This document shows, one piece after another, positions 32,949-59,949 of a stretch of 64,000 nt of DNA; within the stretch, counting starts at the first letter, position 1, and each line of letters opens with the position of its first letter. The stretch lies in assembly GCF_963676685.1 (NCBI RefSeq), contig NC_092348.1:26040001-26104000 (forward strand). Direction: 5' to 3'. The DNA is from Mytilus edulis. Taxonomy: Eukaryota. The notes below the pieces were generated by a model, which saw only the letters and a program-made list of their open reading frames with translations, did not search any database and was not told where the DNA came from. The translations under genes and the position numbers were made by a program.

Positions 32949-33053
32949 AAATCTATAGTGCTTCACACATTGTGCATACGGACAACGAACTTGCAGCAGG
33001 ATAAGTTATTATTTGCAGTTCCGTTATAACTACATTTCGCTTGTTATTTCAGA

Positions 33054-34525
33054 ATGGGAGATGCTCCTCCATTATTTGTGTAAGTATGAAAATTGATGTG
33101 TTTAACAAATAGTTCTTTTTTGGAATGTTATGTAAAAATTAAATGCCGTTTAAATGGACATGTAGAGATTTAAAAATTTTAAATATTTAAGATGAACAAT
33201 GTAGCCGACATTTTTATGCAAACGCAGAAAAAAAGAATAGATAGTACGGGAATATTGATTCAAAAAAGGTATGCACAGTGCTTGTACAAAAAAGTAATAC
33301 AGATGTGAAATATCATACGATTTTAAAACGTTAAGACTTTCAAAATTCAAAGATGTCGTGCCAAAAACGGCTAAGGTAATCTATTCCTGGAAGAAGAAAA
33401 TCCTTAGTTTTTCCAAAAAATCTAAGTTTTGTAAAAGGAAATTTATAAAAATGACCATATAATTGATACTCGTGTCAACACCAAAGTGCTGACTACTGTG
33501 TGATTGCCAACATCACACAGAAATTAACAACTATAGGTCACCGTACAGCCTTCAACAATGAGCAAAGCCCTTCCCGCTTAGACAGCTATAAAAGACATTG
33601 GAATGACAATTTAAAACAATTCAAACAAGAAAACTAACGGCCTTATTTATGAAAACAAAATGAAATAAAACCAAATACGTAACACATAAACAAATGAAAA
33701 CCTCGGAATTACAGGCTCCTGACTTGTGACAGGCACATACATACAGAATGTGGCGGGGTTAAACATGTCAGCCAAATATTTTTTTCTGAATTTGTGGTAA
33801 GAAGAGTTGCTCGAAGATAAAATGTGCAATTGTAAGACAATATCATCCGTAACTCTTTTTCAGGCTAATTCCTATGGTGCTCGTCGTAAAATTTGTATTC
33901 TGGATTACTATTTGTTATACATGTTCAAATAGATACCGAAATTCACGAACCACAATTATTCAACAAACAGTGGTAAGTGTATAATAATGTAACAAAAGCT
34001 TACAAGATATGTTTCTACATAGAGACATCTTACCATGAAAGTTTATTTTTTGAAAAACAGTAATGCATCTTTAATCCATTTATGGTCTATCGATTTGTAT
34101 AAGTATAAATCCTCGACATCTACAGCATTTTTTATCAATATTAATACTTGAAAATAATTTTCAAATGTAAATGCTTTATACAGTGTAGTAAACATTTGAA
34201 ATGTTGATGAATCTTTTGTTTCGTTATATGGTCGCCAGTTAGCAATACCTTAACAATTAGTAAAAACAACAATAATTTCAAAAGGGATAAGAAGGTAAAC
34301 AATAACACACATTAAAGTTCCCTTTTCAAAGTGATTTATACTAATGTGTTTTGTTTTTAGATGAAAGTGGAAGATGATAATGGCATTACTGGTATAGAAA
34401 ACCCTGGATATATGCGTCCATTTATCACCGAAACACCCGATCATAATGCAACACAAGCTGTTTTGGCACAACCACCCTACGACCATAACACAATATCACC
34501 ATGCCTTAGACAAAATTATCGTTAG
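33054..34525 (+). CDS. Small single-pass membrane protein, tandem family copy A (99 aa)
   Basis: Exons 33054-33079, 33864-33972 and 34361-34525 (canonical GT-AG, phases 2 and 0) give MGDAPPLFVLIPMVLVVKFVFWITICYTCSNRYRNSRTTIIQQTVMKVEDDNGITGIENPGYMRPFITETPDHNATQAVLAQPPYDHNTISPCLRQNYR*; same structure as copies B and C. Confidence 0.85.
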
Positions 34526-36274
34526 AACACCGCAGTATTTGTGTATTAAGTTTTGTGTATACGACTGTTAATACTTTTCGTATTGCTATCTACTCACATT
34601 AATTCATAGTGTTTTTGTCTTGAATGACTATATTGCTATGATAAGTCAACAGTAATATTTGTTTAATTCTCGTAATTTCCATGTGAGAATCATGAAACAA
34701 AGTCGAAAGAACATGAATATACCTAGTATTTATTAAATCTATTGGGAATCGAGGGCATTTGAAATGTTGAATAACTTTGTATAAATCTTTAACTCTTTTT
34801 GCTGCTTCTCATTTTCCCTTCCCTGTACATATGTTACATGCACAATTGCAAGAAAAAATATTCTTTAAGTAAACATATGAATGCACATTTCAGAAACAAA
34901 GAAATGATACAAGATGTAATAATTGAGTAACGCTTTCATATCAATCATTAATTTCGAATCAGTAAACTTTTGACGATGTATAAATATATTCAGAAATGTT
35001 TTACTCGAACATGTTATCTACCTGATTTTGTCCAATTAAGATCTGTCTTAATATTATAAAGAGCATATTCATGTCATAATTGAGTTATTTTCATATCAGT
35101 TTTGTAAGTCATACACTGATCTGATAAATTCATAATAACACATTTTTGGTATTACTAAAATTACAATTATTCATTGCCTTAAACATTATGATGTAGTTAC
35201 GTTCCGACTGAAACTCCTGTTTCATTCTATGTTCAAGATACATGTACTTGTGCTATGTCTTTGTTTGAATATGTTATAACTTTTTTAGAAATGTTTTCCC
35301 ACACTTTGTTGTCAGTCTTTATTTTTAAGACATTGTTGTTTTTGTTGCTGTTATAGTTATCACGGTGTTTTAATTAAAAAAATCTACTCATTTTGAGGAA
35401 AAAGAATGAAGTTCATAATGATATTTAACCAAGCATTGCAATGTGCTTATCAGATGAGTCAAGCATTTGTCATGTTCATCTGCTTTTAGAGGTCTTTTTC
35501 GTACGTTGTGGTATCACATAACTATTCTTGATAAAGGTTTAAAGGATCATCAACATGCTATGTCAGTGTTATGTAATGATGGTGTATTATTATGGCTGTG
35601 GTTGGTTGTTGTCCGCCATGATATTATGATACAGCAATACTGCTTTTTAGTTCACAATTACACTTGATCAATTGTAACCGAAAAAAGAAAAACACCAACC
35701 ATAGAACGCAAAGAAGAAGTATGATTTAAAAAACTGTTCGAAAGCTAAGAGGTTTTTGTTTAATTTTATTAGACAATGCTAATTCTATTCTCTATTATGC
35801 TTTTAAAAATACGAAAAACAAAGTTTCTGTGATACAATCTTATGGCGGTAAATGACAGAAAACAGTGTTTTTTACCGATGTTTATCCATTTTTTAGTTAC
35901 ATATAGCATATTTTAAGTTTGGTCTGTTTCATAAATCTCAATTATTGGCAGCACTGTCCATTCGTTGTCTATCGCCTGTATAAACAAATTAAAAAGCAGA
36001 AACGAACCATTTATTGATTGCATAAGTGTAATGGAACTAAAGTAGCAAAAGAAAAAAACGCAAACTAACTTCAAAATGTTAAATTCGTGTAATGCCAATG
36101 CCCTATATGTTTAAAAAAATTACTTTCCGTTTCGATTTACTCCCAATCAATTCAATTGTATAATTTGGTAGGTCACATTCATGAAAAGGGAAGGGGATTG
36201 TAGTTAAGAAATAAGGTACATATCCGATATCATCTGTAAAACGGTTATTCCATGACAGCGACAAAATCACATAA

Positions 36275-36402
36275 CGAACTTGTGATGGCGTCCATAAAAT
36301 TTACGAAGGGATGATTACAACTTCATCAATTGGAACTCTTGATTTAAAAGCTTCCTTGTGAGCAGCAGCACTCTATCAAGGAAATCATGATAGGGAATAC
36401 AG
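36275..36402 (-). mobile_element. Penelope-like retroelement RT fragment
   Basis: Minus strand: YHDFLDRVLLLTRKLLNQEFQLMKL*SSLRKFYGRHH. Confidence 0.7.
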
Positions 36403-38172
36403 TAAATCATGCCAGTACAACATAAGTGACTTCTGACATGAAGATACCATCAGGAACTGATAATATACAACCTGGGTTATCGGGTTATACGCCCCGCTAT
36501 ACTGCTCTGCAGAAGACTGTGAAGTCCTGGGAGATAAAATAAATCCTCAGTCGCCGTCATTAGGCAACACCTTTAACGATACTTACAATAAATAATCTTA
36601 AAATTTGAAGGAAAGTGACGAATTTAATAGTATTACCATTGAATACAGAATTAATTTGATGAATTTATAAGTATACAGAGATTGGTACACAATGGAGACA
36701 CCAGCTGTCAAAATTAAGAGACATTGTGGACACAAATACACACCTCTTCATTATAATATATTTCTGTTATGAATTACAAAATACGTTGAACCACAAACGT
36801 CAAAATTATTCAATCGCGTAGTGGAATTAACTATTTGTGGATTCTTATAAATTCTATATAACGTTTGGACTATTTTTAAATCTTGGTTTATTTCTGAAAT
36901 TGATTCTAACATACTTTTGATTTTTTAACCCTGTATGCTAACATTGCCTATGTGAAATTTTAAAATTGTTTGTATATACATTGAACGACAAATTAATGTG
37001 ATGTATAAACATTTTCTGACGTCAGACACGTGAATCAATGAATGTGTTTGTAGATAGATGTTTTTGTGTTCTGTTAAATTTTTCCTTTTAAAATTGTTAC
37101 ACGATGATGAATGCTGTACCTATATTTTGACTATTTTATTTATTATGTCTGTTTAGTGCACGCATAATTGCAAATATAACGGAATTTGACTAGACTGTCA
37201 TCAAAGTGAGAGGGTTGGCGCTATAAAACCAGGTTTAATCCACCATTTTCTACATTTGAAAATGCTGTACCAAGTCAGGAATATGACAGTTCTTGTCCAT
37301 TCGTTTTTGATGTGTTTTGTTATTTGATTTTGCCATGTGATTATGAACTTTCTGATTAGATTTTCCTCTAAGTTCAGTATTTGTGATTTTACTTTTTTCA
37401 ATAGACGTAAACATTGTTTGTTTAATTATTATAATCTTAAATACAGGTTATTTTCAATTTCCCAATTTTATCAAGGTAGCTAAAAGCTCATCCTCTGAAG
37501 CGATATTCAAATGCTTGTCTTTTACTAATTGTTTTACTCAATTTGAAAATAAAAGTTCATTTTAGTACAAACGTGATTTTAATATATTAGTAACCAAAAC
37601 ATGAAATTATATCTTTATGGTAAGCATAACAGATATGCATGCAAACGTTTTGTTACCTAGTTTATTGGTATATATACTTCTGTTCATTACTATTCATTAC
37701 CATTTTTGAGACAATCTCTTGCACATTAGGTAAAAACATTCGTTAAAAAGGTTTATTAGCGACCGTAAAAGTAAATTGTTCGTATTCCTATAGATAATTA
37801 ATTAATCTTAAAATCCTCTTAATTCTTAACCAGAATTTAATTTCTCTTTAAATACATTTAATAATTAACTCGTTTTTTTCTTTCGATCATATGAAAAAAG
37901 TTTAGAAATGTTCAGATGTGTAAATTTCTCGTATAAGTTTAAATAAGATCATATAAATAGATTGGAGCGTATCCCCAAGTTTATCTATATTTATTCATAT
38001 GTCATATTTCTATCTGTCGATACGAACATTAATCTATCTGATATACAATTCTTTTTTACATGCAGTGTAATTAGTGGGTTTTCCATATCACATATATGAC
38101 AAACTACGAGATACTGGATATGTGAATAAATTATAATCTTGTATTGAGCACAGTATTGTTTGTTATTTCAGA

Positions 38173-41100
38173 ATGGTAGATTTAATTTCATTATCTATGT
38201 AAGTATAAACACGATGAATTAAAACTATATTTTACATCAAACATTTGTACACATTCGAAATGAGATAAGAATTCTTCATTCGAGTATTAAGCTACAATAT
38301 ACAAATATGAAAAGAATGATATGGTGAAAATACCCAATATGTAGCCTCAACCAAATTAAAACTAATTAAATCAGGAAGTTGTTTTCTGTTAAGTCCATTT
38401 GAATCATTGTATTAACTGTTTTTCCTTTAAATCACTCCACAAATGAATCTTATATTATATACAAAATAAGGCAAATGATGAAGATAGTTATATTTGGCTA
38501 ATTCTCTTCTCTGAGGCCAATTAAACGAGAACCTTAATATTATATACAGTAATAATGAAGAACATCACTGTATAATATACCCATACCTATGATACATGTT
38601 CAATGTGAGCATTCTTTTAATTTTACATTTAAAAAAGCGATAAAACAATATTGACTACGGGCAAATGTAACCCAAAGATGAAATATCAAAATAATAGCAG
38701 TCAGGTGTACTCCAGACTTACAGTTTCTATAAGTCAATTCAAATACAAAACGTGTTGCACCATCACAACCATACAAGACAAAAACAAAATACCTTTGCAG
38801 GTAAACTATGCCCGACGGAATGACAAGCTTAAAATTAATAACCAAATTTCAAGACATCAAATTAACAAAGGCTCCTGACTTAGGACAAGCGCAAAAATGC
38901 GGCGGGGTTAAACATATTTATGAGATCGAAACCCTCCTCTTTACATTTAGCTAATGTAAAATGAACAAACACACAGCAATACGCACAGTGAAACTTAGTT
39001 TAAAAGAAGCCCGATACCTATTGTCAGAATATGTAACACTAGAAACTAGGCAAAATGACAATAATACATAAAAGAAGGGCGAAAGATATAAATTAACAAG
39101 GGACTAGTATCAGTAACTGACATGCCAATGCCAGACCTCAATTGAACTAAGTGATAGATAATGTCTTCATCATATGAAAACCAAGCACACATCATTATAC
39201 TCTATGTATTGAAACATTTGTTTTCAGGACACTTCCTGTAGTTGTATTTTTAAAGATAATTTTCTGGGTATCTATTTGTTGTAGATTTTCAGACAGATAC
39301 ATGAATTTATGTGGTAATCAAGGATTGAATCCGACCACACTTGATCAACACACAGTGGTAAGTGTACAGTTTATCGATATCAATTAAAATAAAAACTAAA
39401 ACATTAGAATAAACTTGTTCATGGTAAAATTTTAAATTTGAAGAAATCACTACACTACTTAAATTTATCAACAGAGCAATACAAAGCTAAGACTGGCAAA
39501 ATGTGCAGTAAAACAGCGGAATACATTCTGTATACAAGTGTTTCTCAATGTTAAAAGATTGCAAAGTTCTTCAGTTTTACGTTCTGAAATTATTATACTT
39601 TACATATAAAGTTTTTTTGTGTTGTAATCATGGTAATGATGAACAATGCATGTAGGTAAATTTTTAACTAGGATATGAAAATTTAAATACAATATGCATT
39701 AAAAGAAATAATTTCAATAAATCGAGTGTTCATAACTTGAATATTTCAATAATACTTCTGTACAAATAACTTTTTCGTTGAAAAATCCCAGTTTTTAATT
39801 TGGGTTAGTTACCTGAATATATGTATGCTCTTCAATGTAAATTCGGCATAGATGTGAGATATTATGAATTCAGTAAGAAGAAGGCATCTTTAAATTTATT
39901 TTTTGACCTTTCAAATAGAAAATCACAATGCTATTAGAAATTCACAACTTACCACATGTTTCTTAGGATATTATTTTGTTTTAATTCTCCAACCGATATG
40001 AAAGGGGTCTTTTGAATTATGTTCCTCATTTTCATCTCTTAAAGAAATAAAAATACATGCAACAACCGTGTAGATTCATGTGATCGGCGTAGTCTCTTTA
40101 GATCTTCTTCTGCTAGTTATCAACCTTATTGTTTTCTATATGATAATAAGAAGGTGTGGTATGATTGCCAATAAGATAACTATAACATATATGTCATTTT
40201 GTCCGTTTTACTTTTAATATGCAGTATGTACAAGAATGGCTGCATACGTATATCCTTTTTTTTTTTTTTTTTTTTTTTTTATAACTCTTTATGTTTTAAA
40301 TCACAACAAACATATTAGATGCATGATTTTTTTTGTAAGTTGTTATTGCCATTGAACTAACTGTCAGTAACTATGAGTGTTGTGTTTCATATTTGTTTTT
40401 CGTTCATTATTTTGTGCATTAGTTTTATGGTTTGAATTGTTTTACCTAGGTCATTTCGGGGCCTTTTATCGGGGACTATGCGGTAAGAGATTTTCTCATT
40501 GGTGAAGCATTACAATGCCTTATAGTTGTTGATTTTTGTGTACTTTGGTCTCTTATGAAGGGTTGTCTCATTGCAGTCATACACATCTTCAATTGTTTTG
40601 TTTGATATAATCTCGGATATTGAATCAACTGCATAAGATAAAGATCAGAACTATTTATGATATCCAGCATATAATTATTAGTATGACAAAAAACAAACAA
40701 TTCATATCAAAGAAAATGAATCTAATCTTATACATTACTTGTGACAGTAATACGTCGTTGATTCTTGATTGCCAACTTGTAGTTTATATTAATATGTATC
40801 TACTGTTGGTTAATTATTATTTATTGGATACCCATTGTCGTGGGTTTCGTGTATACAGGTGACAACGAATTCAAATGTTCAACGAATAACACATTTTCTA
40901 TAGGATGCCAATGAAGGGATTGGCAAAACCACGATATAAAATATCCACAAAAAAGTTTTCTTCAATGATTTTATCCACAATATAAATGACCAACAAATAT
41001 GATTCCACAGTGTATTAAAAAGAGACTCAGATGATATCAATGAAGGATATTTAAACTCATAAGTCGAAGACAAACCAACTCATTGATGTAAAAAAAAAAC

Positions 41101-43818
41101 ACGAATAGCACCGAAACACAAACAAATTCTGTATGAAACAAAACATTCACAAATAAAGACAAAACAACACAAATCACAAATCTTATAGTTCCTGAAGATT
41201 AAGCATATCGTATTCTTAATTTCAGTCTTTACGCTTAACCACAAGTCTTAGGGCATAGGTTTGTAAAATTGCTAATGGGCATGTAAAATTCTTCTATAAA
41301 GGCCAACAGAATCCAATAAAATTTTTCTAAAAAATGAGCTTCTGGCGTGTGGACTTTAAAGTTACGAGTGAATGCTGAAATGTAGTGTCATTTTGTTGCG
41401 CATGTACCTTAAGATTCGGTAAAACGTCTCATTTTGTTATGTTACATTCTAGTCAAAGAGGACGGGATTACATTTACGATAGATAAAATACACGTAAAAT
41501 TGTGATGGCCTCGATAACATTTACGGATAGCTTGTTTGGTTGTGGTTCTTGAGTGTTTAAGGCTATTACATAATTTCTAAAAGTTGTATCATTTATTTGT
41601 TTAAACGCACTTTACAAAAGGAATACAAGTTATTCAAGTTAATAGTGTATAATAGGCGTCCGTCTGTGAAATTGTGATTGAAGATGACCTGAATTAACAG
41701 GATGCACTTTTACATAATAAATATGTAATTTTCAAAGTTTTCTATTTCTATTGAAATGTACATAACTAAAAAGTTTTAGTATAACATATGTTAACATGAA
41801 GTATATCTAACAGAGTAACCCATTTCTATTTCTTCATATTTATAGAAAGAAATAAGGAGATGTGGTATGATTGCCAATGAGACCACTCTCCATCCACATC
41901 ACAATGTGTAAAAAGTAAACAATTATAAATCAAAGTACGACATTCGACACGGAATCTTGGCTCACAACGTAAGGCAAGCTATAAAGGGTCCTTAAAGGAC
42001 TATTGTAAACAATTCATAAAGGAAACCAAAGATATCATCTTTATAATAAACGAAAAACATTTTTTAACCACATCAACAAACGACAACCATTGAACTACAG
42101 GTTTTTGACTTAGGACAGATGCATACACATGCACCGGGTTTAAACGTTTTAACAGGCGCTAACCTTCACCCTTACCTGAAACAGTAGTATAACATTTTAG
42201 CATATAAAAGACACAATAAAAATATCAATTGAAATTGCTTAACTTGTACAAACAAAATATATACAAAAACAAGAGTACATACACAATAACGCACAATAAT
42301 TACAATATTAGTACAAAAGATGTAAAAAATGTAGGTTTTATGTAACTGGATGTTTATATCATTCTAAATAAGAAGCAATTATTGTCAATCTCCTTTGCAA
42401 TAATAAACCTTTTAACTCACATTTATCCTCTTAGTGCATCTTGGTTGTGGTAATGTTTTGCCTCAGATTGCAATTTTCTAAACGTTGGTTATACGCTGGT
42501 CGTGCATTTAAAAAGTAAAATCACAAAAATACTGAACTCCACGGAAAATTAAACCGTATGGAAAGTCCCTAATCAAATGGCAAAATCTCAAAAAAAAAGC
42601 TCAAACACATCAAAAGAATAGATAACAAATTTCATATTCCAGACTTGGTACAGCATTTTTCTTCTGTAGAAAATGTTTCTTTAAAACCTGGTTTTAAAGG
42701 GAGCGTAACCTCTAACTTGTATGACAGTTGCATCAGATTCCATTATATTGACAACGATGCATGAAAAAAACAAATCTAATTGGTAAAAATACAGCAGTCA
42801 CCACTGTTTTATAAATGCGATTTGAAATAACAGATCTTCAATGAGCATGTGGACGTAGAAGGGTGTAGGAGGATGTAGAACACCTACAAAAAGTCCGGAG
42901 TTGTGAATGCTTAACGTGTCTTTCCAACTTATACCCGTTTCTAGGACACAAAGCTTCAACTACTATTGTATTCTTATTCCAAAATTATAATTATTATTTA
43001 TCAGCTCCAGGACGTGAAATTCACGACGAAAATCGGAATCCAATATGTACTTATAGATTAGTCACGAATTTGCTTTCTAACATTCTTCAACCATATGTTT
43101 TGGAGTTTTTCACTGAACAAGGGTACACACCTTTATAGGGGTTAGCTGAAGCCCTTCTCCATGTTCATGATTTTTTCCGTTGTGCTGAATACCAAATGGT
43201 AGCCTTTGGCTGTTTTCTGTACTTTGTCGGGTTGTTGTCACTTTTAAACATTCCATGTCTATTCTCTATCTAATTCCAACAATACAAATATCAAGTAAGA
43301 ACATTCAACCAAAGTTATCGATCAGGTGTAGATTCCTAGGAATCGAAAAGATCTCCTCTTATAACTTCAATCAAAATATTTACAGCTTTTTTTTGCTATT
43401 ATTCCCAATGCCATATTACAAAACTCGGTTACATTCTTTGACATTGATTTATCTACAAAAATTGTAATCGTAGATACATTTTATACAATCGTTTATGTTT
43501 TCAGAAATCAGGGATTCTTCATAATCACTGATTAAACAAATTCAGTGTTTCATATACATATATCAATTGATCTAATTATTAAAAAAATAATACAAGATTA
43601 AAGCTTATAATAACATTCATATTCTATTGTTTCATTGTGAGTTATAAAGATGTACTTTTTGATCAGATGATGGGCCAGGTGACAATGGTGTTGCTGGTAT
43701 TGAAAATCCTGGATGGATACCACAGCCTTCATCTAGCACCGAAATGACAAGGTCAAACTCAACACAATCATCGGCGCCACCTGTCGTCAAAGCTCCAGGC
43801 TACGCAGAACAATATTAA
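38173..43818 (+). CDS. Small single-pass membrane protein, tandem family copy B (exon phase between exons 2 and 3 unresolved)
   Basis: Exons 38173-38198 (MVDLISLSM), 39228-39357 (TLPVVVFLKIIFWVSICCRFSDRYMNLCGNQGLNPTTLDQHTV) and 43667-43818 (DGPGDNGVAGIENPGWIPQP...APPVVKAPGYAEQY*, starts in phase 1); candidate extra exon 43005-43046. Confidence 0.65.
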
Positions 43819-44314
43819 TGTAATCGGAATACGAGGGATTATTATTGTATTTGCAAGAAAACGACTCGTTTGTGCTGCGTACTACTCATCTGAATTCAAT
43901 TGTATTTCATTACTAAGCAAGTTGTTGTTATATTAAACAAAACAAATGCACTATCCAGGACTGTTGTATTCTATTAATTCATTTTGATATCACGGTATAC
44001 AGTGGAAAGTATCTATAAATAGATATGTATGTTACATTTTAGTGTATTGATTAACATGTAAATTGATGATTGACTCTGTAGAAAATTAAAATGCTTTGCT
44101 TACAATTCTCAATGTACCCATTTTACATGCATTGTGTTATAAAAGAAATTAAATTGATGATTTCAGAATGAACAAATAAGCCGTTAGTATTAAGACTGTT
44201 TTACTCCACACCAATCGCAGTCCAGCTTAATCATTTAAACATGAAACATATATGTCAATGATTATTAACCATATCCTAACAATGTTGCATAATACATGCG
44301 TTGTTGTTATCTAT

Positions 44315-45863
44315 GGCCGTGTTCACACCAAACGCCGTGTAGAGTAAACATGTTTACAATTAGTTTAGTGTAGTGTACACTGGTTTCACATTACATTTGT
44401 TTACATCTATACACCTTGTTTAGCTACCTGTACATAAGATTTGTTCCCACTTGTAAACTATATGTCATTTAAATGTTCATTACGTAGAACTGAATTCAAA
44501 ATTTTTGGACAATTTTTCTAGCGGTAAGGGAACAACCATTTGTCTTCAAAAGGGGGTGGGGTGGAAATGGAAATATTCCGTTCCCCAATTTGATAAAAAA
44601 AGTGGTCATACACATGATAAAAAAAATTTATTCTGAATCAAGAGTTTCCCCATACATTATAGTGTTAAATATTGAAAAAAAAAGTATTTGATCACCAGCA
44701 TCGAAAAAAAGGAATAAAAACGTACGCGCGAAAAAAAATCTGACTCAGATAAAAAAAAAAATAACCCTCCCCCTTTTTTTAAGTTAAGTGGTTGCTACTT
44801 TATGAAAGCCATTTTTATTATTTGTAGTAGTTTGAATATACTAGAGATGTCTCGATTACGCATTAGAAAACGTTAGCTGCAGCAGCGTGCTTACAGCCGA
44901 AAAAAAAAGGATTGAGATATTAGGGATCACTACATTTTTATCTTTTCTGTTTGTTTCAAATGGTATTTCTTCTCCAAGTAGTATTTGGTCAAGGAATAGG
45001 GTAACGTTTTTTTTTTATTTATTTTAAGTGTTATTTAACGGATCTGAGATACTAGACAAACGTATCATTTACCTCACACTTTTTTTAGTCCAGATTTATG
45101 CGTGAATCGTTGTTTGAGTAAAGACCAGTGGCGAATATTTCTGTGTACGCCAAGTCGATTCGGGAAGACCTTTTCAAATGAATTAGGCAGCAACTATTTA
45201 CTTCATTTTTTGGGGAGGGGAAAGGGGAGCGGGGGGAGGGGGGTAGGGGGCGTGGGCTATTGATTTTTTTCAGGACAAATTTTGGTGACAAGTCGAAATC
45301 AATTTTAGCATTATATATAGTGGCAGCTGAGGGTGAAACAAAAAAAAAAACAAAATTCAGGGCCAAAAACTGGAAACATTTTTGGTTTCCAAAACAAAAT
45401 CCATAGCTCACCACCCCCACCCCCTTGCCTTTATGTTTTATACTCAACTATAATAGCCCCCCCCCCGAAAAATCAATTGGTTGCTGCCTTATGGGTTCGG
45501 CAATGATGCTGCTTTGAGTCTTGATAAAGAACGTTAATTTTTTTTAACAAAAAAAAATCTGTAAAATTTAGACAATAATTTCTGTAAAGAACTATGTACT
45601 AATAATTATCAAAAATATCAATTTTACTCAAAAATAGTTTCCTCCTTAAATATATATACACGGTAAAACTAATGTCCTAAATGCCTAGTTTTGTGTACAC
45701 TTAACCTACACAAGGCCTACATTGACTATCGACTGTGTGTAGATAAAACATGATTTAAACTACATGTAAACATTGAGTTTTATCAATGGGAACGCAATTG
45801 TGTTTAGTTTACGTGTGAGTTACACTAACACAACACCGAATTTAGGTCAATGTGAACACGGCC
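44315..45863. mobile_element. PIF/Harbinger-like element with nested MITEs (~44528-44799; 45186-45488)
   Basis: tat|GGCCGTGTTCACA...TGTGAACACGGCC|tat; inner tta|GGCAGCAAC...GTTGCTGCC|tta. Confidence 0.8.
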
Positions 45864-46000
45864 TATGATAGTGATTCTATGTTGTGCTTGTGTACTATTA
45901 TTTGTCTTCTTGTCTTTGTTAGCCATGGCGTTGTCAGTTTATTTTCGATACTTGAGTTTACAAACATATACCAATAATTTTAATTTAGGACCTTTGCCTC

Positions 46001-46286
46001 TGTTGTGAATGTGACTTTGTCTTCGTGTCCGTAATGCCGCAAACCAATGTTAACGTTGTTTCCCGTATTTTTGAAGTTGTGTGATAGTGACGTGAGCGAG
46101 AGAGATGTGTTGCCGGATGGACAAGAAGGCTGAAAGTTTGTACTGTCGGAGTGTATGCCGTGTATTCTGTATTTTATGTTAACGTCTGTATATACATATA
46201 GTGTGAATAAATCGTGACTGTTATTTTCTACAAAGATGGTGTTAAGTTACAAATTTATGAACGCTCGGAATTCTACGTTTACAACA
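46001..46286 (+). mobile_element. Solo LTR (286 bp) with 5-bp TSD
   Basis: gcctc|TGTTGT...ACAACA|gcctc; internal AATAAA ~46205; empty paralogous site at ~60000-60050. Confidence 0.85.
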
Positions 46287-47599
46287 GCCTCTATATATCT
46301 AGTAATATGATGCCTCGAGAGAGGATGGTATAAGTATGTCGCCTTCTGTTTTTGAATGTGTGCGAGATATTCGGAATTCTCTAACTTTATCCATGAATTG
46401 ACATTAAAAATTGTGTTTATAAACTCCTACTTTTCACAATTTCATAACTTGATTACATATAGTTTAAAATACAGTTCTATTATTTATATGATATCAACGT
46501 ATAGCAGCTTTGTTATTTTGAAAAAGAGTAGCAAACATCTTTAATTCAATAATGTTATTTTTATTAGTTTTTGTTATTCTTTATTTTGTTCTTTAATTTT
46601 GTAGACGATTAAATCGCGAAGTTAAAATGTTTGCATTCTGCATGTGTGGGTCAAATTACTATTCTAGTGTTTAAACATAATTAACAACACATCATTGATA
46701 ACTGAGAGTTCTATTAAGAAAAACTACTACCCGTTCATTTGGTTCATAAACTAAACTTTAATGCTTTAAAATATGTCTGCATTGTCAAATATGTTGAACC
46801 AGGAACTTTATATGTATCAACTGGTGAGAGTAATAACAGCTTTGTCGAAATTTCTTTTTAGATCGTTGAAATGACACACGAATTAGTGTTTTTGAAGAAA
46901 CTACATTATGCTACTTTAAAAATGCTACTTTTTGTACTCTTCTTTCTGTTTTTGTTTACTTTTTATTCAAAATAGGATTCAATATTTGAAAGTCAAGAAT
47001 GTAAAAGAACCGGGACAATTGAATAGCTTCAAGACCAGTTTTATACGACAGACATTGATATAAAGGTAAGTCATCTGCGTTAAAATATGAAAATCAAAAG
47101 TTATAAAAAGTGATTGGAAATCCACATCTTCATATCTGTTTGTTTAATTCCTTTTTGTTACAATGAATATCTTCCCTGTCATGGGTTAGTTGAATAGTTG
47201 ATTACTTACTCAGAAAATAGACCCACTTTATGCATTTGGCTCAATATGTTTTCGATATCTATTCATCCTCGGCTTTCAAATATTGTTGATTGAGCGTTTC
47301 CGGAGAAAGTTAATGGAAGCTCGAGAATCAGGTTCAATCCACCATTTTCTACATTTGAAAATGCCTATACCAAGTCAGGAATGTGACAGTTCTTGTCCAT
47401 TCGTTTTTTATGCGTTTTGTTATTTGTTTTTGCCATGTGATTATGGACTTTCCGAATTGATTTTCCTGTAAGTTAAGTATTTTTGAGATTTTACTTTTTA
47501 TTAAACTTCAATTAAGTTTATCAGATGTCAGATGTTTCGATACTAACATGATTTATAACAAAATGTCATCAATTGTATGTTAACATATTAATACACTAT

Positions 47600-48361
47600 T
47601 AGAGGTCGGTCATTTAAAGACGTATCAACCGTATCATATACGTTGACGTATCCGCATCTGCAGATATACCAACAAAAAAAAACCAGCATATAATCCCGAG
47701 CGTTAATTTTGTGTACTTTCAATAATGCAAATGGGCGATTGATTAATCTCTAAAGGAGAAACTTACAAAACAATTAGGAAAAATCGATTTTTTTGTGAAA
47801 TATGTAACCCGACTTTTAAAGATATTCCGGATAGTTGGAACAGTTTACAGGCATTATAGGAGTGAATACGGTAAAATTGTGTGTTTGTGTATGAACTTGT
47901 TCTCACGTAGAACCAAATTGTTAATTGACAAATAGAGTGATACTCAGTAATTTTCTATTACCTTTGATGATAAAATCGCAAATGAACAATATTCAAAGTT
48001 TCTTTAATACATGTATACAAGTAGTAAATTTTTTTTGTGTGCGTATTCATATAGGATGTTGAAATATATTTTTAACTAGATTATTAAAGGGTTGTGTACG
48101 ATATTCGTGTACCTGCCCTACATGGGCTCCTTTTTAAAAGTAGTTAATAGAGCTTCTTATTTTTTTTTACAAAACACCACTATTACAAATATTGAAAGTG
48201 TATGTTTGATTGTTTCGAAGAGATTCCAATTAGTTTGTTTTAAATGAAGCATGGTCTTATTAATAAGCTCGGGATCACATAATATTTTTTGATCTATCTG
48301 CAGATGCGGATACGTCAACGTATACGATACGGTTGATACGTTTGTAAACGACCGACCTCTA
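47600..48361. mobile_element. MITE with ~66-bp TIRs (TAGAGGTCGG termini)
   Basis: tagaggtcggtc...gacgtatccgcatctgcagata is mirrored by tatctgcagatgcggatacgtc...gaccgacctcta; no clear TSD. Confidence 0.8.
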
Positions 48362-49675
48362 ATGAAATTAAAGATCCTTAGGCTAAGTTATCCTAAAATG
48401 AATTTGAACACTTTTAAGATCTCCTTTAATACATTTTTTTATTGATTTCTGTGTGTGTTTATTCATCATTGGCCTTCACATAATGGGATTAATCGTTCAC
48501 AATTGAAGGTTAATCGAGAAAAGTATGCTGAACGAATGAGGTAAATAGTTTCTTTTTTGTTTTAGTTGATTGTTCTTGAACAGGACTTGTACCTATGATT
48601 TTCATAACACATATTTATACAATCAATTATCAACCAGTTCTACCATCTCGAGTAACTGAGATCAGAATATTTGTCAGAGTAAATCTAAATAGTAAAAAAC
48701 CAGGTTTTATGAGTCGGTCTAGTAGCAGTGCCCAGTTTTTCCATTTGTATTGTATGTACTTATCTTTATCAAGGGCCAAACGTTGGTAGATAATGTTCTC
48801 CGTGGTAATGTTTAACATTTTGAGAGATTCTTGCTATGCATGCTTGTTGTTGTATTCATACTAATATCACTAAAATATAGGTTACAACCTGCCGAATTGG
48901 ACTATTTACCGGATTTGTAATAACATAAGCAACACGACGGATACCACATCAACCTTATTCAGAATTCGAAGTACAAAATGTTTTCTCGAACACCAAATCC
49001 TGTTTTTTGATTGGTTGAATTCTGGGTTTGAATACGATATTCGTGCTCGAAATTTTTATGACGGCAGAGATACGTCAGGGAGTCAGCTGTTAATATTTGT
49101 CTCATTAGACACAAGTTAACATCGATTTTAAAGAACAAAGGTAAATAATATTGAAAATTTGAATTTTTCACAATATTTCCTATAAAAATTGTATCTTTGG
49201 TTTAGAAAGTTATCGTTTATGTAAAACAATTTAATGATACAGATATAGAAGTAAATGCATGGCAACTGGAAAGATATGAATCTTACAGGTAAATCTTGAC
49301 TCAGGGATGTCCATTTTATACTCAGTCATTTTCACAACTGTGTTTCGCAAAGACATTGCTGAATCAGCCAGAAAATGCATAACACTTTGGAATTTGTCCG
49401 TCACTTGCAAACCGAAACGACAATATAATGATTTACATTTTGCAGCGAATCAATAACTGTAAATGCTACATTATATGCATGATCCGTTGTTTTAGGCGTT
49501 CACTTTGCGACCTTATACAATTATGCACACTTCTATGAGCATGATCTGTAATAGATAAATTATGATAATTCCAATTTAAACGAACTAAATCTATACTGTT
49601 TCACACATTATGTATGACGTCTTATATGTTACATCAGTGTCTCTGTAGTACATACACATTGTTTGTTATTTCAGA

Positions 49676-52600
49676 ATGGGAGACAGTAATTCATTATTTA
49701 TGTAAGTATGGACATTGTTATGTAAATATTCTTATAAAAGAATTAGTCTGTCTAAAATGTAAAGGAATTACAGTTATTTGAAATTTTAAAGATTTTTCGT
49801 AATATCAAAAAGATCGAAAATGTATACCGACGTTAAAAGCAGATGCCGAAAGATTACTTCCTTAAGATTATTTGAATAGTGTTTCAAAAATATTAATACT
49901 TGTGCTGAACGAAACAAGAATGTGTCCATAGTACACGTGTGCCCCACTCGCACTATCATTTTTATGTTCAGTGGACCAAGAAATTAGGGGTAAAAACTCT
50001 AATTTGGCATTACAATTAAAAAATCATTTCATAGGGAACATGTGTACTAAGTATCACGTTGTTTGAATTTCAACTTCATCAAAAACTACCATGACCAAAA
50101 ACTTTAAACCAGAAGCGGGACAGACGAACGAACGAATGAACCGATGGACGAACGAACAGTCGGACGAACGAACAAACGGACGAATGAACGAAACAACGGA
50201 CGAACGGACGCACAGACCAGAAAACTTAATGCCCCTCTACTATCGTAGATGGGGCATACAAATTGTACAAAATTAATAAGAAGTAGAGGATTCAGAAAGA
50301 ATAACAAACGAATCACGTCAGGCGTGATTTTGATAACGTATTCCAATCCGTTTTTCTTTTACAATTCTCAAATTCATACTATTACGTGTGAAGGTTTGTT
50401 TAAAATTTGACCATAATTCATAGGAATATTATAACGATAGTGGATTGTATCCATATAGTTTACATATGCATATGTTGTGTACATGTTATCATTCTGTTCA
50501 GGTAATTACTTGTAACACGCGCGAAAGACGTGCGACTATTAGTAATTTAAGGGAAGCCTATTTGACTGTCCCTTTGGTATCTTTCGTCCCTCTTTTAGTT
50601 CCATAAAAGTCAGCAAATCAAGGACATTTCTTAAGGCAGTATGATGTTTTAAATGTACCGGAATTAAAAAAATCATTCGCAAAGGAGACTAAATTATCTA
50701 TCATTGTACAGTTGATGAAATTTACCATTTGATTAAAACAACACAATCCGGAGTTGGTCATTGAGGCATCCACAACATTATACATTGTAAGAAGTAAATA
50801 CTTTGACAGCAGCGAAATAATCAGACAATGTTGATTTTGAAAATCAATTACCTTAAGGTTGCACTTTGTAAATACAGCTGCTCGCAAAACACGCCTCTTT
50901 TGGGGAGAACTTGAATATTCATAGAAAATTAATTTTGTTTACATACTGGTTACCAGTTATGCTCTCTGTGTTTCATCTCACAGAGACATAACTTGGCAAT
51001 GTTACCAGTAAATAAAAATGTGCATATTGTTTACATTGGAATCTGTGGTAACCTTTCATTAGAGGTAGGGGTAGTTAAGAAAATAAGTGTTAGTTTAAAC
51101 TCTGAGAAGTTCAGGGCATATAAACGTTGAAAATATCCCGAACAGCCCTATATTTTGACCTTTGAAAAAAATTGTGGTGCATATGAAGATTTAATTCTAG
51201 GATAAGATTTTTTTCAAAACTACATAGTAAAAGTGGTACAGTTTTAGCCTTAAAAGGAGTTCCTATGGGAAATTGCATTGTCAATATTTACAGAAATGCA
51301 ACCTATATAGGATGAAAAAGGGGATAATTCAGAATTTAACCAATTTTGCTTTATTTCACAGATTTTAAAGAAATTAACTCAAATATGAAGTTTTATGAAT
51401 ATTAAATGAAGATTGATAGAATCCTTGGCCTTAAATATGATGACTCAGCATAAATTCACAGTTTACAGTATGCATAGTTTACAGAAATTCCTGGATACAC
51501 AATTAATTCATAATACTTTGCATATTTGTAAGTTAAATTGTTAAGAAGTGCTTATATTTAGTCTTTGCAGTCATTGAAACTCATAGATCCTTCCTGAATA
51601 TTATGTATGGGGTGTTAGTGTCCTTTCGATAACCCATAAAGTAAGCCGCAACACCTAAATCTGGTTGTTTTTGTCACCACGGCATAATAAATACAAGCTA
51701 GAAAAACAGAATATCTTAACAAAACTTACAACAGTGTGTTCAATCCTGAATATGTACTAGATATTCAAAATTGCTAGAAACAGCAGAATGATTTAGGAAA
51801 TTTGAGGCCCCAGGGGCAAAAAACATAGAAAATTGCCTATCCCCTGGGTCATAAAACAAATAATTTAACTTGTAAATGCTATGATTTTATGATTTTAAAG
51901 TTCTTGATATAGAAAAACAATAACTATGCTAGGAAGTAATGCAAAATTCAGATGTTAGCAGTCATCTCTTTAACATTTTAAGTGAATTTATATCTCAGTT
52001 TGGTATCTGCATCATTTATTTACAACCACTGGGTCGATGCCACTGCTGGTGGAGATTTCGTTACCGGAGGGTATCAGAAGCCCAGTAGTCAGCACTTTTT
52101 GTGCTGACATGAATTGTCATTGATATTGTTATATTTATAAATTTATTTGTTTACAAATGTTTTAATTTTTTGAAATACTAAGGCTTTTCTACCTCAGGCA
52201 TAAATTACCTTAGCGTACTTTATTTGGCCTTTTTAACTTTTTTTGATTCGAGCGTCACTGATGAGTCTTTTGTAGACGAAACGCGCATCTGGCGTATACT
52301 AAATTTGGTCCTGGAATCTATGATGAGTTTATTTATATAATCTTGAAACATATTTAATTATAGTGGATTGGGAAACAAGTTTTGCAACTTATATTAATCC
52401 CTTTCCACTTTGCGGTTGCGAGTGCTGCCTTGTAGCGGCATAAGCCTGCTCTTTTTCGAAATCTACAAGGGTGTCTTTAACGTGCAAGAGATATGACACT
52501 CTCTTAACACGGGTCAGCCATTTATCGTCCCCTTCTGACGGACTATCGTCGTTTCCACAAGACCATACTCGCAAAAGGTGTCAAGGGAGCGCCGAAAATT

Positions 52601-55600
52601 CAGTCCCTGGCGAGACGGGAATCGAACCAGGAACCTTTGTATTAAAGATTGACTGCTAAACATTACATTTATAGTAATCTGATATGCTTTAAATATGTTA
52701 TCAAAATAGTTTTAAACAGGTTCTAGGCATTTCTTATATCAGACAATATGCAAATAGGGTTAGCTGGTTAATTAAAATCTTGTTTTCAAATTCTTTAAAA
52801 AATTGAAACAGGGGATGGGGTATAAAATATACAGTAAAGAAAAACTTAGAGTATGCACTGTGATTTCTTTAAGGCTATAATTCTGATAAATGAGTATTAA
52901 TGTGAGAAAAACTGATTTTAGGGAGTTTTCTATTTGAGTAAATATTTGTATAGGTTGCACTTTGTAAATACAGCTGTTTCTCAAAATACTCCTCTTTTGG
53001 GGAGAACTTGAATATCCATAGAAAATAAATTTTGTTTACATACTGGTTCCTAGTTATGCTCTCTGTGTTCCATCTCACAGAGACATAACTTGGCAATGTT
53101 ACCAGTAAATAAAAATGTGCATGTTGTTTACATTGAAATCTGTGGTAACCTTTCATTCGAGGTATGGGTAGTTATGAAAATAAGTGTTAGTTTAAACTCT
53201 AAAAAATTGTGGTGCATATGAACATTCAATTCTAGGATAAGATTTTTTTCAAAACTTCATAGTAAAAGTGGTACAGTTTTAGCCGTAAAAGGAGTTCCTA
53301 TAGGAAATTGCATTGTCAATATTTACAGAAATGCAACCTAAATGATGAATCAGAACAAAAATACATGTAAAATCCTGAAATCTGTGATTTTTGAGGATTT
53401 TCTGCATTTTTACCCCAAAAATGTAGAATTAGTGAAATATTGAATTTTGAAACTTGTTTTCATACAGAAAACATGCAGATAGTCAATTAATTACTGATGA
53501 AATATTTCTTTGGGACAGGGCCATTTTTGGAACTTAGTGAACCTAGTAATTTCTCTTCGAAACAATCAAATTAGTCGTTCTTCCAAAACTTCTAGAGACT
53601 TTATTTAGTTCTTAGTGTAAAATAGACCTTGTTGATTATCAATCCTATCCAGTTGGAGAATATAAGTGGATCATGCACTACCAGGATCGCTTTCACAAAT
53701 TCAGTGTACTATGCTCTATAAAGACAAAAAGAGCAGTTGAAGTGGCTTACCAATATACTGACATTTGTTTTTACATTTGGGAGCTCCACATATTGTGCAA
53801 AGTCATAATCGAAGAGAATTTAAAAATTATGTAATTACAAAACCTATACTTCTTTGGCCAGAACTTAACTTGGTACATGGTAAACCATGTCACCCTCAAA
53901 GTCATGAGTTTTCAGAAAGGGCGAACGCTGACATAAATAGTAATAGTATGCAACTATTTTATGTTTTAATTTTCTTTCCCAGGTCAAACCATGAACGATT
54001 GATCATTCGCCGTATAAAGCATTATTGGGAAGTGACCCTAAAGTTGCCTTGTCATCGTCAGCTCTTTCAAAAGAAATTGTTGACACTGTAGAAACTGAAG
54101 AAACTGACGAAACATTGACTAAAATCAGCAAGGACCCATCGACGCAACATCTAATTCAAAATTTAATAACACTTTTAGATGATATATTGGCTCTCAACAA
54201 TAACGACCTCTGTGTGCACATTAAAGAAGTTTATCTTGCCGCACTGACTTTAAATAAAGCTAATGCAAACAACGAACACTGACATTTCCTGCATCTTGAT
54301 ATCTTTATCTTTATGGGGAGGCTTAATAACATAATTTATGATAAAAGGAGATGATTTTTCACTTACTATTGTTAGTTATCCATTTTTAGATGGTGACGTT
54401 TCCTTGTCACAATCTTATGGTGATTATATATCTGAACGTGTGCGATTCACCCGTGTATGTATTAATGTATTTGAATAAATTAACAACGCCCTGGCTAAAA
54501 AAAAAAAGACGTTTGATTCGTAGTTAAGTATTTTACCTTTCTACCAGTGTGTTTGAAGTTTAAATGCGCACGAAACATACTTACATTCAAATGTAAGTCA
54601 CAGCACTTGTTCATGAAATTCGTGGTAAATTATCTAACTACAAATTTGATTTTTGTAAACCATTTAATTACCACAAATTTCATGAACAAGTGCTGTGACT
54701 TACATATGAATGTAAGTATGTTTCGTGCGCAAATAGATAAAATACTCTATTTGGCGTAACTCTTTTTCAGGGTAATTCCTTTAGTGCTCATCGTTAAAAT
54801 TTGTTGCTGGGGAGCTATTTGTTATAGAATTAGATGGTCAAACAGATCAGGAAATGAACAAACCACAATTATTCATCGCACTGTTGTAAGTAAATATATT
54901 GGTGAAACTTCTAAAATAACATTCAAAAATAACATGTGTAGCTCATAACTAAATGTGCATAATACTCAAGTTTTATGCACAATAGAAAACCCTCATTGGA
55001 AATTTTTACTTTTGCAAATTCATCCTTGAACATTTGAGTGTGTGGAATTTGTTTGAATATATTTTTCATCCAATAGGTTAAAACTATATAAGGTTAAGTT
55101 GCCTTTAGATAGAATAGACTATTGTTTTTCACTCATATCACGTTGCACGTGCGATCGGCTCCTAACTTATTTAAGGCTTTTTCTTGCAACAAAATGGTGC
55201 TGATAGTTAATAAAGGTACCAGGCTTAAAATTTGATACGTCAGACGCGCGTTTCGTCTACATTAGACTCATACATGACGATCAGATCAAAATAGTAAGAA
55301 AGCCAAAACAAGTAAAATTGAAGAGCATTGAGGACCGGAAATTCCTTAAAATTGTTCAAGAGCGGCTGACACTTAGTGAAATTGGCATTAAACACAAAAT
55401 AATTATTAAAACAATTTTGATAACACTACGAAATTTATAACAAATTTAAACGATTCAGAAATGTCATCTAATATTCAGAAACAAATGTTTAAGAAATATA
55501 TGTGTAAGTACATATCTATTACCGGAATTTGTTGTTAAATAACAATACAATGGTTCGTTGTCTTTTTAAAATAATCTATCGAATATTAATAGATATAGAA

Positions 55601-56041
55601 AGACGTGGTGTGAGTATATTTGTTTTTATATCCTTCACTTGGTATCATATGTAATCATTTGAACTAATTTTCCAACGCAATTGATTTAAAGTAAACACTT
55701 AAATTGTTGATATATCTTGATATTGCTTATAATATGTTTGTCAGTTAACAATAACAATAATACCATACGAATAAATTCAACCCGTTTTCATTTCAAAAGC
55801 GACAAAAACATAATTTATATTTTCCAGTGTGAGTTATACATATATATTTTTTTAGATTCAAGGGCCTGTTGAAAATGGTATTACTGGTATAGAAAACCCT
55901 GGATATTTGCAGCAGCCTCTAGTTTATACCGATGCAATCAGTCCAAACCCGAGACCATCATCGGTACTTCCATCAAACGAGCAAATGACCAAAGCACCGT
56001 ACTATCCAGAACAGTATAATCCGGGGGCATCGCGTTATTAG
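49676..56041 (+). CDS. Small single-pass membrane protein, tandem family copy C (108 aa)
   Basis: Exons 49676-49701, 54771-54885 and 55856-56041 (phases 2 and 0) give MGDSNSLFMVIPLVLIVKICCWGAICYRIRWSNRSGNEQTTIIHRTVIQGPVENGITGIENPGYLQQPLVYTDAISPNPRPSSVLPSNEQMTKAPYYPEQYNPGASRY*; leader-exon donor at 47065. Confidence 0.85.
49913..50260. mobile_element. HINE/pearl-like element with (GAAC/GGAC)n microsatellite
   Basis: aacaagaatgtgtcc start, tetranucleotide repeat at ~50120-50215, terminal atgcccc...ggggcat hairpin. Confidence 0.65.
50857..51303. mobile_element. PIF/Harbinger-like MITE, copy 1 of a direct pair
   Basis: TIR GGTTGCACTTTGTAAATA...TATTTACAGAAATGCAACC; near-identical to 52953-53338. 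Confidence 0.8.
52000..52335 (+). mobile_element. Retrozyme-like monomer with hammerhead at 52252-52295
   Basis: gcgtcaCTGATGAgtcttttgtagacGAAAcgcgcaTCtggcgt (stem III G>A mismatch); body homologous to 29460-29700; short terminal direct repeat. Confidence 0.75.
52362..52668 (-). mobile_element. tRNA-derived SINE with Deu/Nin-like central domain
   Basis: Minus strand has a tRNA-like head with B box GGTTCGATTCCC, then ggggacgataaatggctgacccgtg...gcacgttaaagacaccc...ttcgaaaaagagcagg. Confidence 0.7.
52953..53338. mobile_element. PIF/Harbinger-like MITE, copy 2 of a direct pair
   Basis: Same TIRs as 50857-51303, with an internal deletion of ~60 bp. Confidence 0.8.
53600..53940 (+). mobile_element. 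Degenerate DDE integrase (KRBA2/SCAND3/Ginger2-like) fragment
   Basis: IDLVDYQSYPVGEYKWIMHYQDRFHKFSVLCSIKTKRAVEVAYQ-frameshift-FLHLGAPHIVQSHNRREF...LWPELNLVHGKPCHPQSHEFSERANADI; the catalytic SDNG motif is altered to SHNR. Confidence 0.8.
54334..54470 (+). mobile_element. Penelope-like retroelement RT fragment
   Basis: Frameshifted YDKRDDF..IVSYPFLDGDVSLSQSYGDYISERVRFTRVC. Confidence 0.65.
54565..54731. repeat. Palindromic MITE-like hairpin
   Basis: tgcgcacgaaacatacttacattca...cagcacttgttcatgaaatt is mirrored by aatttcatgaacaagtgctg...tgaatgtaagtatgtttcgtgcgca. Confidence 0.85.
55237..55280 (-). ncRNA. Degenerate hammerhead ribozyme (core CTGATGA>TGTATGA)
   Basis: Reverse complement tcgtca-tgtatga-gtctaatgtagac-GAAA-cgcgcgTC-tgacgt. 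Confidence 0.55.
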
Positions 56042-58642: not shown

Positions 58643-59949
58643 ATGAATTACTTTTAACATTTTGAACCTCAACAAATCAGACAAATTTGTATTATTGTGG
58701 GTTATACCTGTTAATACTTTTACTAACAAATATCATTGAAACTTTTCTTAAATTTGTCCAAAACGTTTAAAAAGAATTCATGTCAACATGTAAAATATCT
58801 TAAATAATAATAACATTCATTTTTACACTGTAAATATATCAAAACGATATTTATAAGTGTACTTCTTTAATTTCAAAGATAAAAATGCTTGTACTTTTCT
58901 ATTTACAAATTTGTGTTTTAACCCAATTTAGTTAGAAAGGAATGTTCATGTCAAAACAGTATTAAGATATGCTGGTTGAAAATTGAAATTTCCATACTGA
59001 AATATTTCATTAAACGAAAAAATCCTTTTTTTTTTATTAAGACTTCTACAGAAAAAGATTTCTTCAAGTTTATGTCACAGTATCTCATGTTTCGTCACAT
59101 AATATATATATAACACTTATGAATATCAGATTGTTTTTTTTTTCATGATAAATTAGGGTTAAATTTGACTTTTTGAGGCTTGTTGAAAGCCGCTCAGTGA
59201 TTTTCGCTTGCAATCTTTTATGCAATTCGGTCTCTAGTTGAGAGTTGTCTCATTGACGTTCATACACCATATGCATTTATTAAGTACCTTAATTATTAGT
59301 CAAGATCCACACCGTTCAATGCCTATGAACAATTGTGATTGAGTTTAAATTACCTAAGACCTTTCCTCAATAACCTCTAATTTCTCACAGGAGGAAAACA
59401 AAACATTTGATATATCTGCGATCACTCGCAGTTTTTGGTGGGGTTCGTGTTGCGTAGTCTTTAGTTTTCTATGTTCTGTATTGTGTTCTATTATTTTCTT
59501 GTTAGTCTTTTTATTTTTTAGCCATGGCGTTGTCAGACAGTCCCTCTAGTTTCTGTCGCCCCGCTTTGTTAACATATGTTTGTTTTAAATCTCATAGACA
59601 CGATAGTGAGTAGGAACGTACAGTGATAATGTCTCGAACAGGAGTTTTATTTCTCAATTTTGGTATTACAAACTACAAACATATTAGAGCTGTGAGTACA
59701 ACATTATCACGAGAGTTGTAGGATACGGGAAACAGCCCTTATGGATGTAAATTACATTGTCATCAAAGTTTTAAACAACATACATGTGACTTAAATTTAA
59801 AATTAATGCGTGTATGATAGAAGACGCTTACTCCCTCAATGCAACCGATATCACCCTATTAGAATTTCAGGAACTTTACTTTTAAAATTGTGATCTGAAC
59901 AAATGATTATATAACGGGACACAATTTGGGAAATCATTTTGTATATTTA

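Follow-up and report, generated by a model that had tools for sequence, protein, structure and literature searches.

A tandem cluster of short single-helix genes in Mytilus edulis and a case for a family of small PY-motif adaptors with a membrane lysine

The window analysed here is the whole of a 64,000-nucleotide stretch of Mytilus edulis DNA (contig NC_092348.1, positions 26,040,001 to 26,104,000 of the forward strand). It contains three tandemly arranged genes, here called A, B and C, for short proteins with one predicted transmembrane (TM) helix. A six-frame scan of the window with the pattern [IL]PxVxxxKxxxWxxIC returns three matches, at 33868, 39232 and 54775 and all on the + strand, in agreement with the initial annotation of this DNA, which had read the pattern in all three TM segments. 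In each gene the pattern-bearing exon is the middle one, preceded by a first coding exon of 26 nt and followed by a last exon with GIENPG. The exons are as follows.

33053..33079, +, gene A, first coding exon: acceptor AG, 1 nt, ATG at 33054, reading MGDAPPLF+; the N-terminus agrees with VDI44875
33864..33972, +, gene A, TM exon: K18 at 33889-33891, W22 at 33901-33903, C26 at 33913-33915, CYTC
34361..34525, +, gene A, last coding exon: GIENPGY (ENPGY at 34397), QPPY, without a strict PPxY, stop TAG
34526..36045, +, gene A, probable 3' untranslated region (UTR), from contig pieces 34360-34821 and 34853-36045 of RNA run X4
38172..38198, +, gene B, first coding exon: ATG at 38173; the M. trossulus orthologue XP_063443392 begins alike
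39228..39357, +, gene B, TM exon (pattern scan, splice model): K18 at 39253-39255, W22, C26-C27
43667..43818, +, gene B, last exon (splice model): one base short at its start compared with A and C
49675..49701, +, gene C, first coding exon: ATG at 49676; model identical to XP_071173282
54771..54885, +, gene C, TM exon (pattern scan, splice model): K18 at 54796-54798, C20-C21, W22, C26
55856..56041, +, gene C, last coding exon: GIENPGY (ENPGY at 55892), APYY..EQY, stop TAG

The three genes are younger duplicates, of which A and C are intact and B is frameshifted in this sequence. GT-AG ends are found in all six introns of the models, and in each gene the acceptor stands one base ahead of the ATG. 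K18, W22 and C26 are present in all three spliced models, only five to six residues precede the best 21-residue hydrophobic window, and every copy has extra cysteines (CYTC in A, CC in B, CC..W..C in C); both the extra cysteines and the brevity of the part before the helix had been described previously and are found again here. Gene A (99 residues) is spliced and expressed: the joint 33972>34361 occurs in two of four RNA runs, in X24 with eight reads (five starts) and in X4 within one contig, and its probable 3' UTR contains AATAAA/ATTAAA at 34732, 35373 and 35988. The protein differs from VDI44875 of M. galloprovincialis at one of 99 residues. The model of gene C (108 residues) is identical to RefSeq XP_071173282 of M. 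edulis, is intact in three species and differs in M. galloprovincialis at a single one of the 108 residues; PLVY and PSNE stand in its tail where two PPxY sites would be. Read depth on the window copies is low in two raw-read RNA runs, and the stretch used for mapping the RNA runs left out exons 2-3 of gene C.

Gene B is broken between its second and third exons. Exon 2 ends in phase 0, and the frame of exon 3 that reads ENPGW...APGY needs one more base; the direct join yields a product of 78 residues without any tail motif. Exon 3 is thus entered out of frame via the canonical splice sites, and the APGY motif that the initial annotation had assigned to the tail of B drops out. Even in the conserved frame B lacks both PPxY sites, and the tyrosine of its NPxY site is replaced by Trp (ENPGW at 43702), or by Cys in another M. 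edulis model. A search of the second intron for a bridging exon of 3n+1 length with strong splice signals gave no candidate, a strict filter that weak exons could escape. Both the orthologue of M. trossulus and a second gene model from M. edulis have exon 3 in frame. In RNA run X1 a contig covers 43666-44153 ungapped, which fits a real frameshifted allele, though it does not document the exon 2-3 joint. XP_063443393 (P0026) of M. trossulus, annotated as isoform X2 of the B orthologue, skips the TM helix and leaves a soluble tail with NPGY and PPPY.

Word-index searches, a full HMMER search and cluster look-ups combine these genes with a family of 39 proteins. Motifs were counted on 26 rows, i.e. 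the three window copies and 23 of the 39 proteins; the 16 left out comprise one identical to C, three fused models, eight partial or helix-less proteins and four near-duplicates. The rows include alleles, orthologues and paralogues and are not independent events. The fused models, examined apart from these counts, are three GenBank models (P0004, P0013, P0022) that join two neighbouring paralogues into two-helix proteins, probably annotation artefacts of the tandem array. In five Mytilus species the family is arranged in tandem; one homologue each was found in Potamilus, Mactra and Ruditapes, and a divergent set of members includes the octocoral Paramuricea. Its best conserved Mytilus member is a founder-type paralogue (XP_071173281 type) with members from five species, 91-95% identity among four aligned rows and a tail with PPPY and PPAY. 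A profile built from the three non-mytilid bivalves scores this paralogue at 66.6 bits (200 shuffles reach at most 15.6) and gene C at only 8.6 bits, which 2 of 200 shuffles reach; by sequence comparison the homology links among bivalve members are firm. The coral link is less sure, being confined to the helix (32 columns, probability 96.8; 20.4 and 34.4 bits, reached by 0 of 200 shuffles each). All named matches are annotated as 'uncharacterized' or 'hypothetical', and literature searches, with most subscription papers and supplements outside their scope, gave no paper for six accessions and, by keyword, no published description of the family among the matches listed. For the protein P0032, JGI gives 'cytochrome/quinol oxidase subunit 2', a label set aside as an automatic assignment. 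A metagenome contig scan gave 238 pattern matches and none confirmed, and a PDB sequence search with the family profile returned stannin alone (E 1.1).

The feature common to all rows counted is the lysine inside the helix. In each of the 26 it falls at position 9-14 of the best hydrophobic 21-mer, followed four residues later by Trp in 25 and eight residues later by Cys in 21. K18 is the sole invariant column of the 21 in the helix, among the 17 bivalve as well as all 19 aligned rows, and one of three invariant columns of 108 in the whole alignment. Invariance in three close copies is by itself weak evidence, because 13 of 36 exon-2 positions are invariant among the window copies anyway; the aligned rows of the wider family, rather than the window copies alone, establish the conservation of the lysine. 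The comparison with orthologues that was proposed along with the initial annotation divides: the Lys holds, and the NPxY tyrosine is found in none of the three non-mytilid bivalves, an outcome that the annotation itself had named as refuting it.

Cysteines stand near the hydrophobic 21-mer in 25 of 26 rows, and in bivalve rows none precedes the helix. Net charge in the window copies is -1 before the helix and +1 to +3 after it, rising to +4 to +5 after the helix in non-mytilid bivalves. By the positive-inside rule the positive flank of a membrane helix is cytosolic, and this charge bias points to an uncleaved, single-pass anchor with the N-terminus outside. AlphaFold predicts one helix at residues 4-38, with pLDDT values of 95 and 89 across residues 11-30 and a mean of 59, followed by a low-confidence tail. 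A two-copy complex prediction for founder-type residues 1-45 scored 0.02, gave no verdict and is not used as evidence.

The tails carry two kinds of tyrosine motif. An NPxY motif (ENPGY, QNPGY or ENPCY) is found at a homologous site in 18 of 20 Mytilus-type rows, in 0 of 3 non-mytilid bivalves (NPQL, NPGL, NPAI) and in 0 of 3 coral-type rows, two of which have NPEY elsewhere in the sequence; G-x-x-N-P is invariant in the 10 bivalve rows of one alignment. [P/L]PxY is present in 17 of 26 rows, with two or more copies in 13, all three non-mytilid bivalves among them. The three window copies have none, lacking a strict PPxY just as the initial annotation had remarked. Each of A, B and C has nearest relatives in the tree that retain at least one PPxY (starred groups 99/96, 97/96, 96/98), so PPxY was lost three times, separately in A, B and C. 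As judged from these tails, strict PPxY is the norm of the family and its lack in the three window copies a loss. A, B and C are thus probably relaxed or diverging copies which no longer recruit a ligase well.

From this combination we consider it reasonably probable that the family works like WBP1, Commissureless and MART-1, i.e. as an adaptor of Nedd4-family ubiquitin ligases without an ectodomain. The origin from a reduced WBP1/VOPP1-like PY-motif protein, which the initial annotation had kept as an alternative, becomes the better reading. Such a protein would place about six residues outside, one helix in the membrane and a disordered tail inside. Two PPxY motifs of the tail would bind WW domains of Nedd4-family E3 ligases, and the adaptor would steer either itself, a client membrane protein or the ligase towards endosomes and lysosomes. 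Since an ectodomain is lacking, recognition of the client or partner would have to be placed in the helix or the tail. The mid-helix Lys, with Trp one turn below, would be the likeliest contact; by analogy with known charge pairs it probably pairs with an acidic residue in the helix of a partner or client. Cys26 is a likely palmitoylation site.

The profile that comes closest is Pfam WBP-1 (PF11669), matched by the Potamilus homologue over profile positions 21-101 of 102 with 32.7 bits and E 1.2e-7 (cut-off 28.1). The Mactra homologue reaches 23.3 bits against RCR, below the cut-off of 27.8; the best scores of family members against Comm and MLANA are 13.2 and 20.1 bits (cut-off 27 in both cases), and a CYYR1 profile gives a best E of 0.015 with matches in 3 of 12 proteins. 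Feature neighbours in the ESM Atlas are Shisa5-like (0.89), VOPP1 (0.77-0.80), MLANA (0.77-0.81) and CYYR1, all within 0.76-0.89 and taken as leads only; structure neighbours were discarded as not meaningful, since the underlying model is of low confidence (pLDDT 0.43).

Several points weigh against the adaptor interpretation. Only one of 10 scanned alignment members passes the WBP-1 cut-off, and the window exons and A/C-type proteins match no Pfam family of the PY-adaptor kind, the six single exons of the window genes having no Pfam match at all. The window copies also lack PPxY, and on both grounds the mechanism is argued for the family and not for A, B or C. Among the coral-type rows counted just one of three has PPxY. 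Agreement is restricted to 3 of the 10 best family-bearing Atlas matches, which the tool reads as 'probably wrong family'. Proteins with a helix and PPSY weakly match the unrelated profiles RCR, MLANA, Comm and TMEM52, and convergence may thus account for the likeness. Since the mussel family lacks the six-Cys ectodomain of Shisa-like proteins, we speak of proteins that may work like WBP1/Comm-type adaptors and possibly descend from them, not of STMC6 proteins. Finally, masking the Lys costs the profile 3.4-3.5 bits and would move two of the three weakest original matches beyond E 1e-3; since the search profile rewards Lys, some circularity is involved for distant homologues.

Among the known systems, WBP1L binds Nedd4-family ligases through L/PPxY motifs (PMC6991692) and CYYR1 their WW domains via PPxY (PMC11399591), as stated in the cited sections; the parts consulted of PMC7401822 and PMC5578492 present yeast Rcr1/Rcr2 and Commissureless as small PY-motif ligase adaptors, and those of PMC3364180 describe MART-1 as binding Nedd4 and Itch and being sorted through multivesicular bodies. 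The family resembles WBP1, WBP1L, VOPP1, CYYR1 and TMEM92, in so far as the cited sections describe them, in being short and single-pass with juxtamembrane Cys and, in the family at large, several L/PPxY. The hallmark of Shisa-like/STMC6 proteins given there is an N-terminal outer domain with six Cys, C*C*CC*CC (PMC5578492, PMC6991692), and according to the section seen of PMC7653359 the presence of Shisa is patchy in molluscs. In contrast to WBP1, VOPP1 and CYYR1, the mussel family has no such ectodomain, a mere five to six residues precede the helix in the window copies, PPxY is missing from these copies, and the bivalve members lack a signal peptide and have an invariant mid-helix Lys and a GxxNP motif. 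With Commissureless, PRRG and Rcr1/Rcr2 the family shares the small single-pass form, without a signal sequence in some of those described, and a PY motif with acidic and hydrophobic residues after it (PPSYDDV and PPSYEEV in the family, GLPSYDEAL in Comm; cited sections of PMC5578492 and PMC7401822). It differs from them in remaining below the Comm and RCR cut-offs, in lacking a Gla-like outer part and in its membrane Lys, which is not among the features that these sections describe for those adaptors. MLANA is of similar size and gives the weak Pfam and Atlas matches listed above, its score staying under the cut-off; it is a vertebrate melanocyte protein. To our knowledge MART-1/MLANA has no intramembrane Lys.

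What sets the family apart among small PY-motif adaptors, a kind already known, is its deeply kept membrane Lys. For most small Nedd4 adaptors the choice of clients is an open question, and a family with an invariant buried Lys and no ectodomain offers a one-residue test of client selection within the membrane, the mussel cluster adding natural variants with and without the ligase-binding motif. A bolder version has an ancient ubiquitin-ligase adaptor, shared from coral to bivalve, choose its clients by an intramembrane charge pair and not by an ectodomain, with the thrice-arisen PPxY-less Mytilus paralogues, their Lys helix retained, as decoys that shield clients from degradation through Nedd4; activator and decoy would then form a pair that depends on a single membrane lysine. 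We consider this improbable.

That the window copies are decaying duplicates without a distinct function, the founder-type paralogue alone being of importance, is a serious though unlikely alternative, and one compatible with the PY-adaptor explanation for the family as a whole. Crude NG86 ratios of non-synonymous to synonymous change (dN/dS), from 45-53 codons per pair and without confidence limits, are 1.01 and 0.98 for A versus C and 0.63-0.86 for the pairs with B, which suits decay, as do the frameshift of B with the loss of every tail motif, an A allele in which NPGY has become NLGY, and the low RNA read depth. However, the frames of A and C have stayed open and encode K18/W22/C26 and GIENPGY, three species have an intact C, and the RNA runs show A to be expressed and spliced. 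If the copies are merely drifting, the value of the locus lies in the annotation of an uncharacterised bivalve family.

A quite unlikely alternative takes NPxY as the main signal, with PPxY secondary, and the proteins as small cargo or sorting subunits. PTB/FERM adaptors handle NPxY cargo in clathrin endocytosis or sorting-nexin recycling. The ENPGY motifs that the initial annotation had claimed for A and C are present (34397 and 55892) and are kept there despite the loss of both PPxY sites; the motif occurs in nearly all Mytilus-type rows, and G-x-x-N-P does not vary in the bivalve alignment. The tyrosine itself, however, is absent from all three non-mytilid bivalves, replaced by Trp in B and by Cys in the other M. 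edulis model, and the Pro is replaced by Leu in the A allele named above, so that an interpretation centred on NPxY, as put forward at first, is not supported.

The initial annotation had preferred a transmembrane adaptor of the LAT/NTAL type, i.e. a phosphotyrosine scaffold, or an immunoreceptor subunit paired with DAP12, perhaps at work in haemocytes. The likeness of the mussel proteins to LAT/NTAL consists of about six outer residues, one helix and juxtamembrane Cys (as far as the cited section of PMC2196071 goes), together with five to seven tyrosines in A and C; that to the DAP12-paired mouse CD33, Siglec-H and Siglec-15 is a Lys in the TM helix (cited section of PMC6890642), and Syk homologues are recorded from molluscs in the part seen of bioRxiv 10.1101/046789. 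The cluster also expands in tandem with fast divergence, as its dN/dS of 0.63-1.01 illustrates. This combination is typical of immune genes. NTAL, however, has CxxC, five YxN and ten tyrosines (PMC2196071, same section), whereas in the mussel family CxxC occurs in 9 of 26 rows and, among the window copies, in A only, YxN reaches at most one per protein (12 of 26 rows, none in C), and immunoreceptor tyrosine-based activation motifs (ITAMs) are found in 0 of 26 rows. The family proteins are half the length and conserve PPxY instead of phosphotyrosine sites. In contrast to DAP12-paired receptors they have no ligand-binding ectodomain, and the partners DAP12 and FcRgamma are stated to be not conserved in invertebrates, again in the part seen of 10.1101/046789. 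The LAT/NTAL reading fails with CxxC confined to A among the window copies and with the YxN array missing, and the haemocyte setting is unsupported, the ETS-like octamer (see below) being degenerate in C; we regard this alternative as distinctly improbable.

It is highly improbable that the hydrophobic stretch is cleaved off as a signal peptide and the tail secreted as a peptide, and such cleavage is an outcome which the initial annotation had named as fatal to its own proposal: the stretch does begin at residue 6-7 and the N-truncated model VDI21089 bears the UniRef label 'Secreted protein', but the charge bias is the reverse of that of a signal peptide, there are 21 hydrophobic residues, the tail motifs are of cytosolic types, and in coral-type homologues the same Lys helix is preceded by a distinct N-terminal leader.

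The regions upstream of the coding exons bear on the length of the outer part and indicate a further copy.

30294..30435, +, upstream block of A, ending in a putative 5'-exon donor AAG/GTAAGA at 30435 (paralogue alignment)
30362..30369, +, CAGGAAGT, ETS-like core upstream of A, also present in the fourth copy (at 62826) and in degenerate form in C
47036..47065, +, putative 5'-exon end of C, donor AAG/GTAAGT at 47065 (alignment)
59467..63994, +, upstream region of a probable fourth paralogue, donor at 62901, coding exons past the window end

The upstream block of A is 73% identical to the paralogous block 62758-62984, and the 5' joint of A likely starts from the donor at 30435. A frame check of this 5' exon finds 50 open in-frame codons, none of them ATG. 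In the 5' exon of C an in-frame stop lies directly upstream, and the next ATG is therefore the start. Given the upstream donors, the stop in C and the lack of an ATG in A, a short outer part appears well supported for C and likely for A. The region 59467-63994 is a colinear match of 70-87% to 45875-49112, the upstream region of C, and likewise has an in-frame stop just upstream of its donor; a fourth paralogue probably begins just past the window end. The octamer CAGGAAGT, reported earlier as a conserved ETS-like site, does stand at a homologous place in two of three aligned upstream regions (A and the fourth copy), the third, that of C, having only a degenerate form. ETS-like 8-mers number 14 in the window compared with 7.6 in mononucleotide shuffles, and the loose form 76 compared with 93; the retention of one 8-mer inside a 73%-identical block seems unremarkable. 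The first intron of C includes a recent local duplication (50856-51316 / 52952-53349, 91-95% identity). Elements resembling miniature inverted-repeat transposable elements, with inverted repeats, are located at 58187-58649, 47598-48363 and 54565-54731 (arms 163, 79 and 64 nt), the last immediately preceding the TM exon of C.

Elsewhere in the window, a neighbouring gene on the - strand (5838-6137, further exons at ~4572-5659) encodes a low-density lipoprotein (LDL)-receptor class A domain (Pfam E 4.6e-7) immediately followed by a TM helix without acidic residues, on its face no candidate for a charge partner. Many RNA reads skip a 666-nt block at 32174-32839, whose ends are not those of a canonical intron; reads also map inside the block, which is likely an insertion within a dispersed repeat. 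An AT-rich satellite of 20-22-nt units occupies 13764-14315, with an inverted repeat of 153 nt and 98% identity (13786-13938 / 14026-14178), and at 2476-3244 and 9030-9215 lie tandem arrays, the former with a 34-nt unit (~16 plus 5 copies) and the latter with a 37-nt unit (5 copies).

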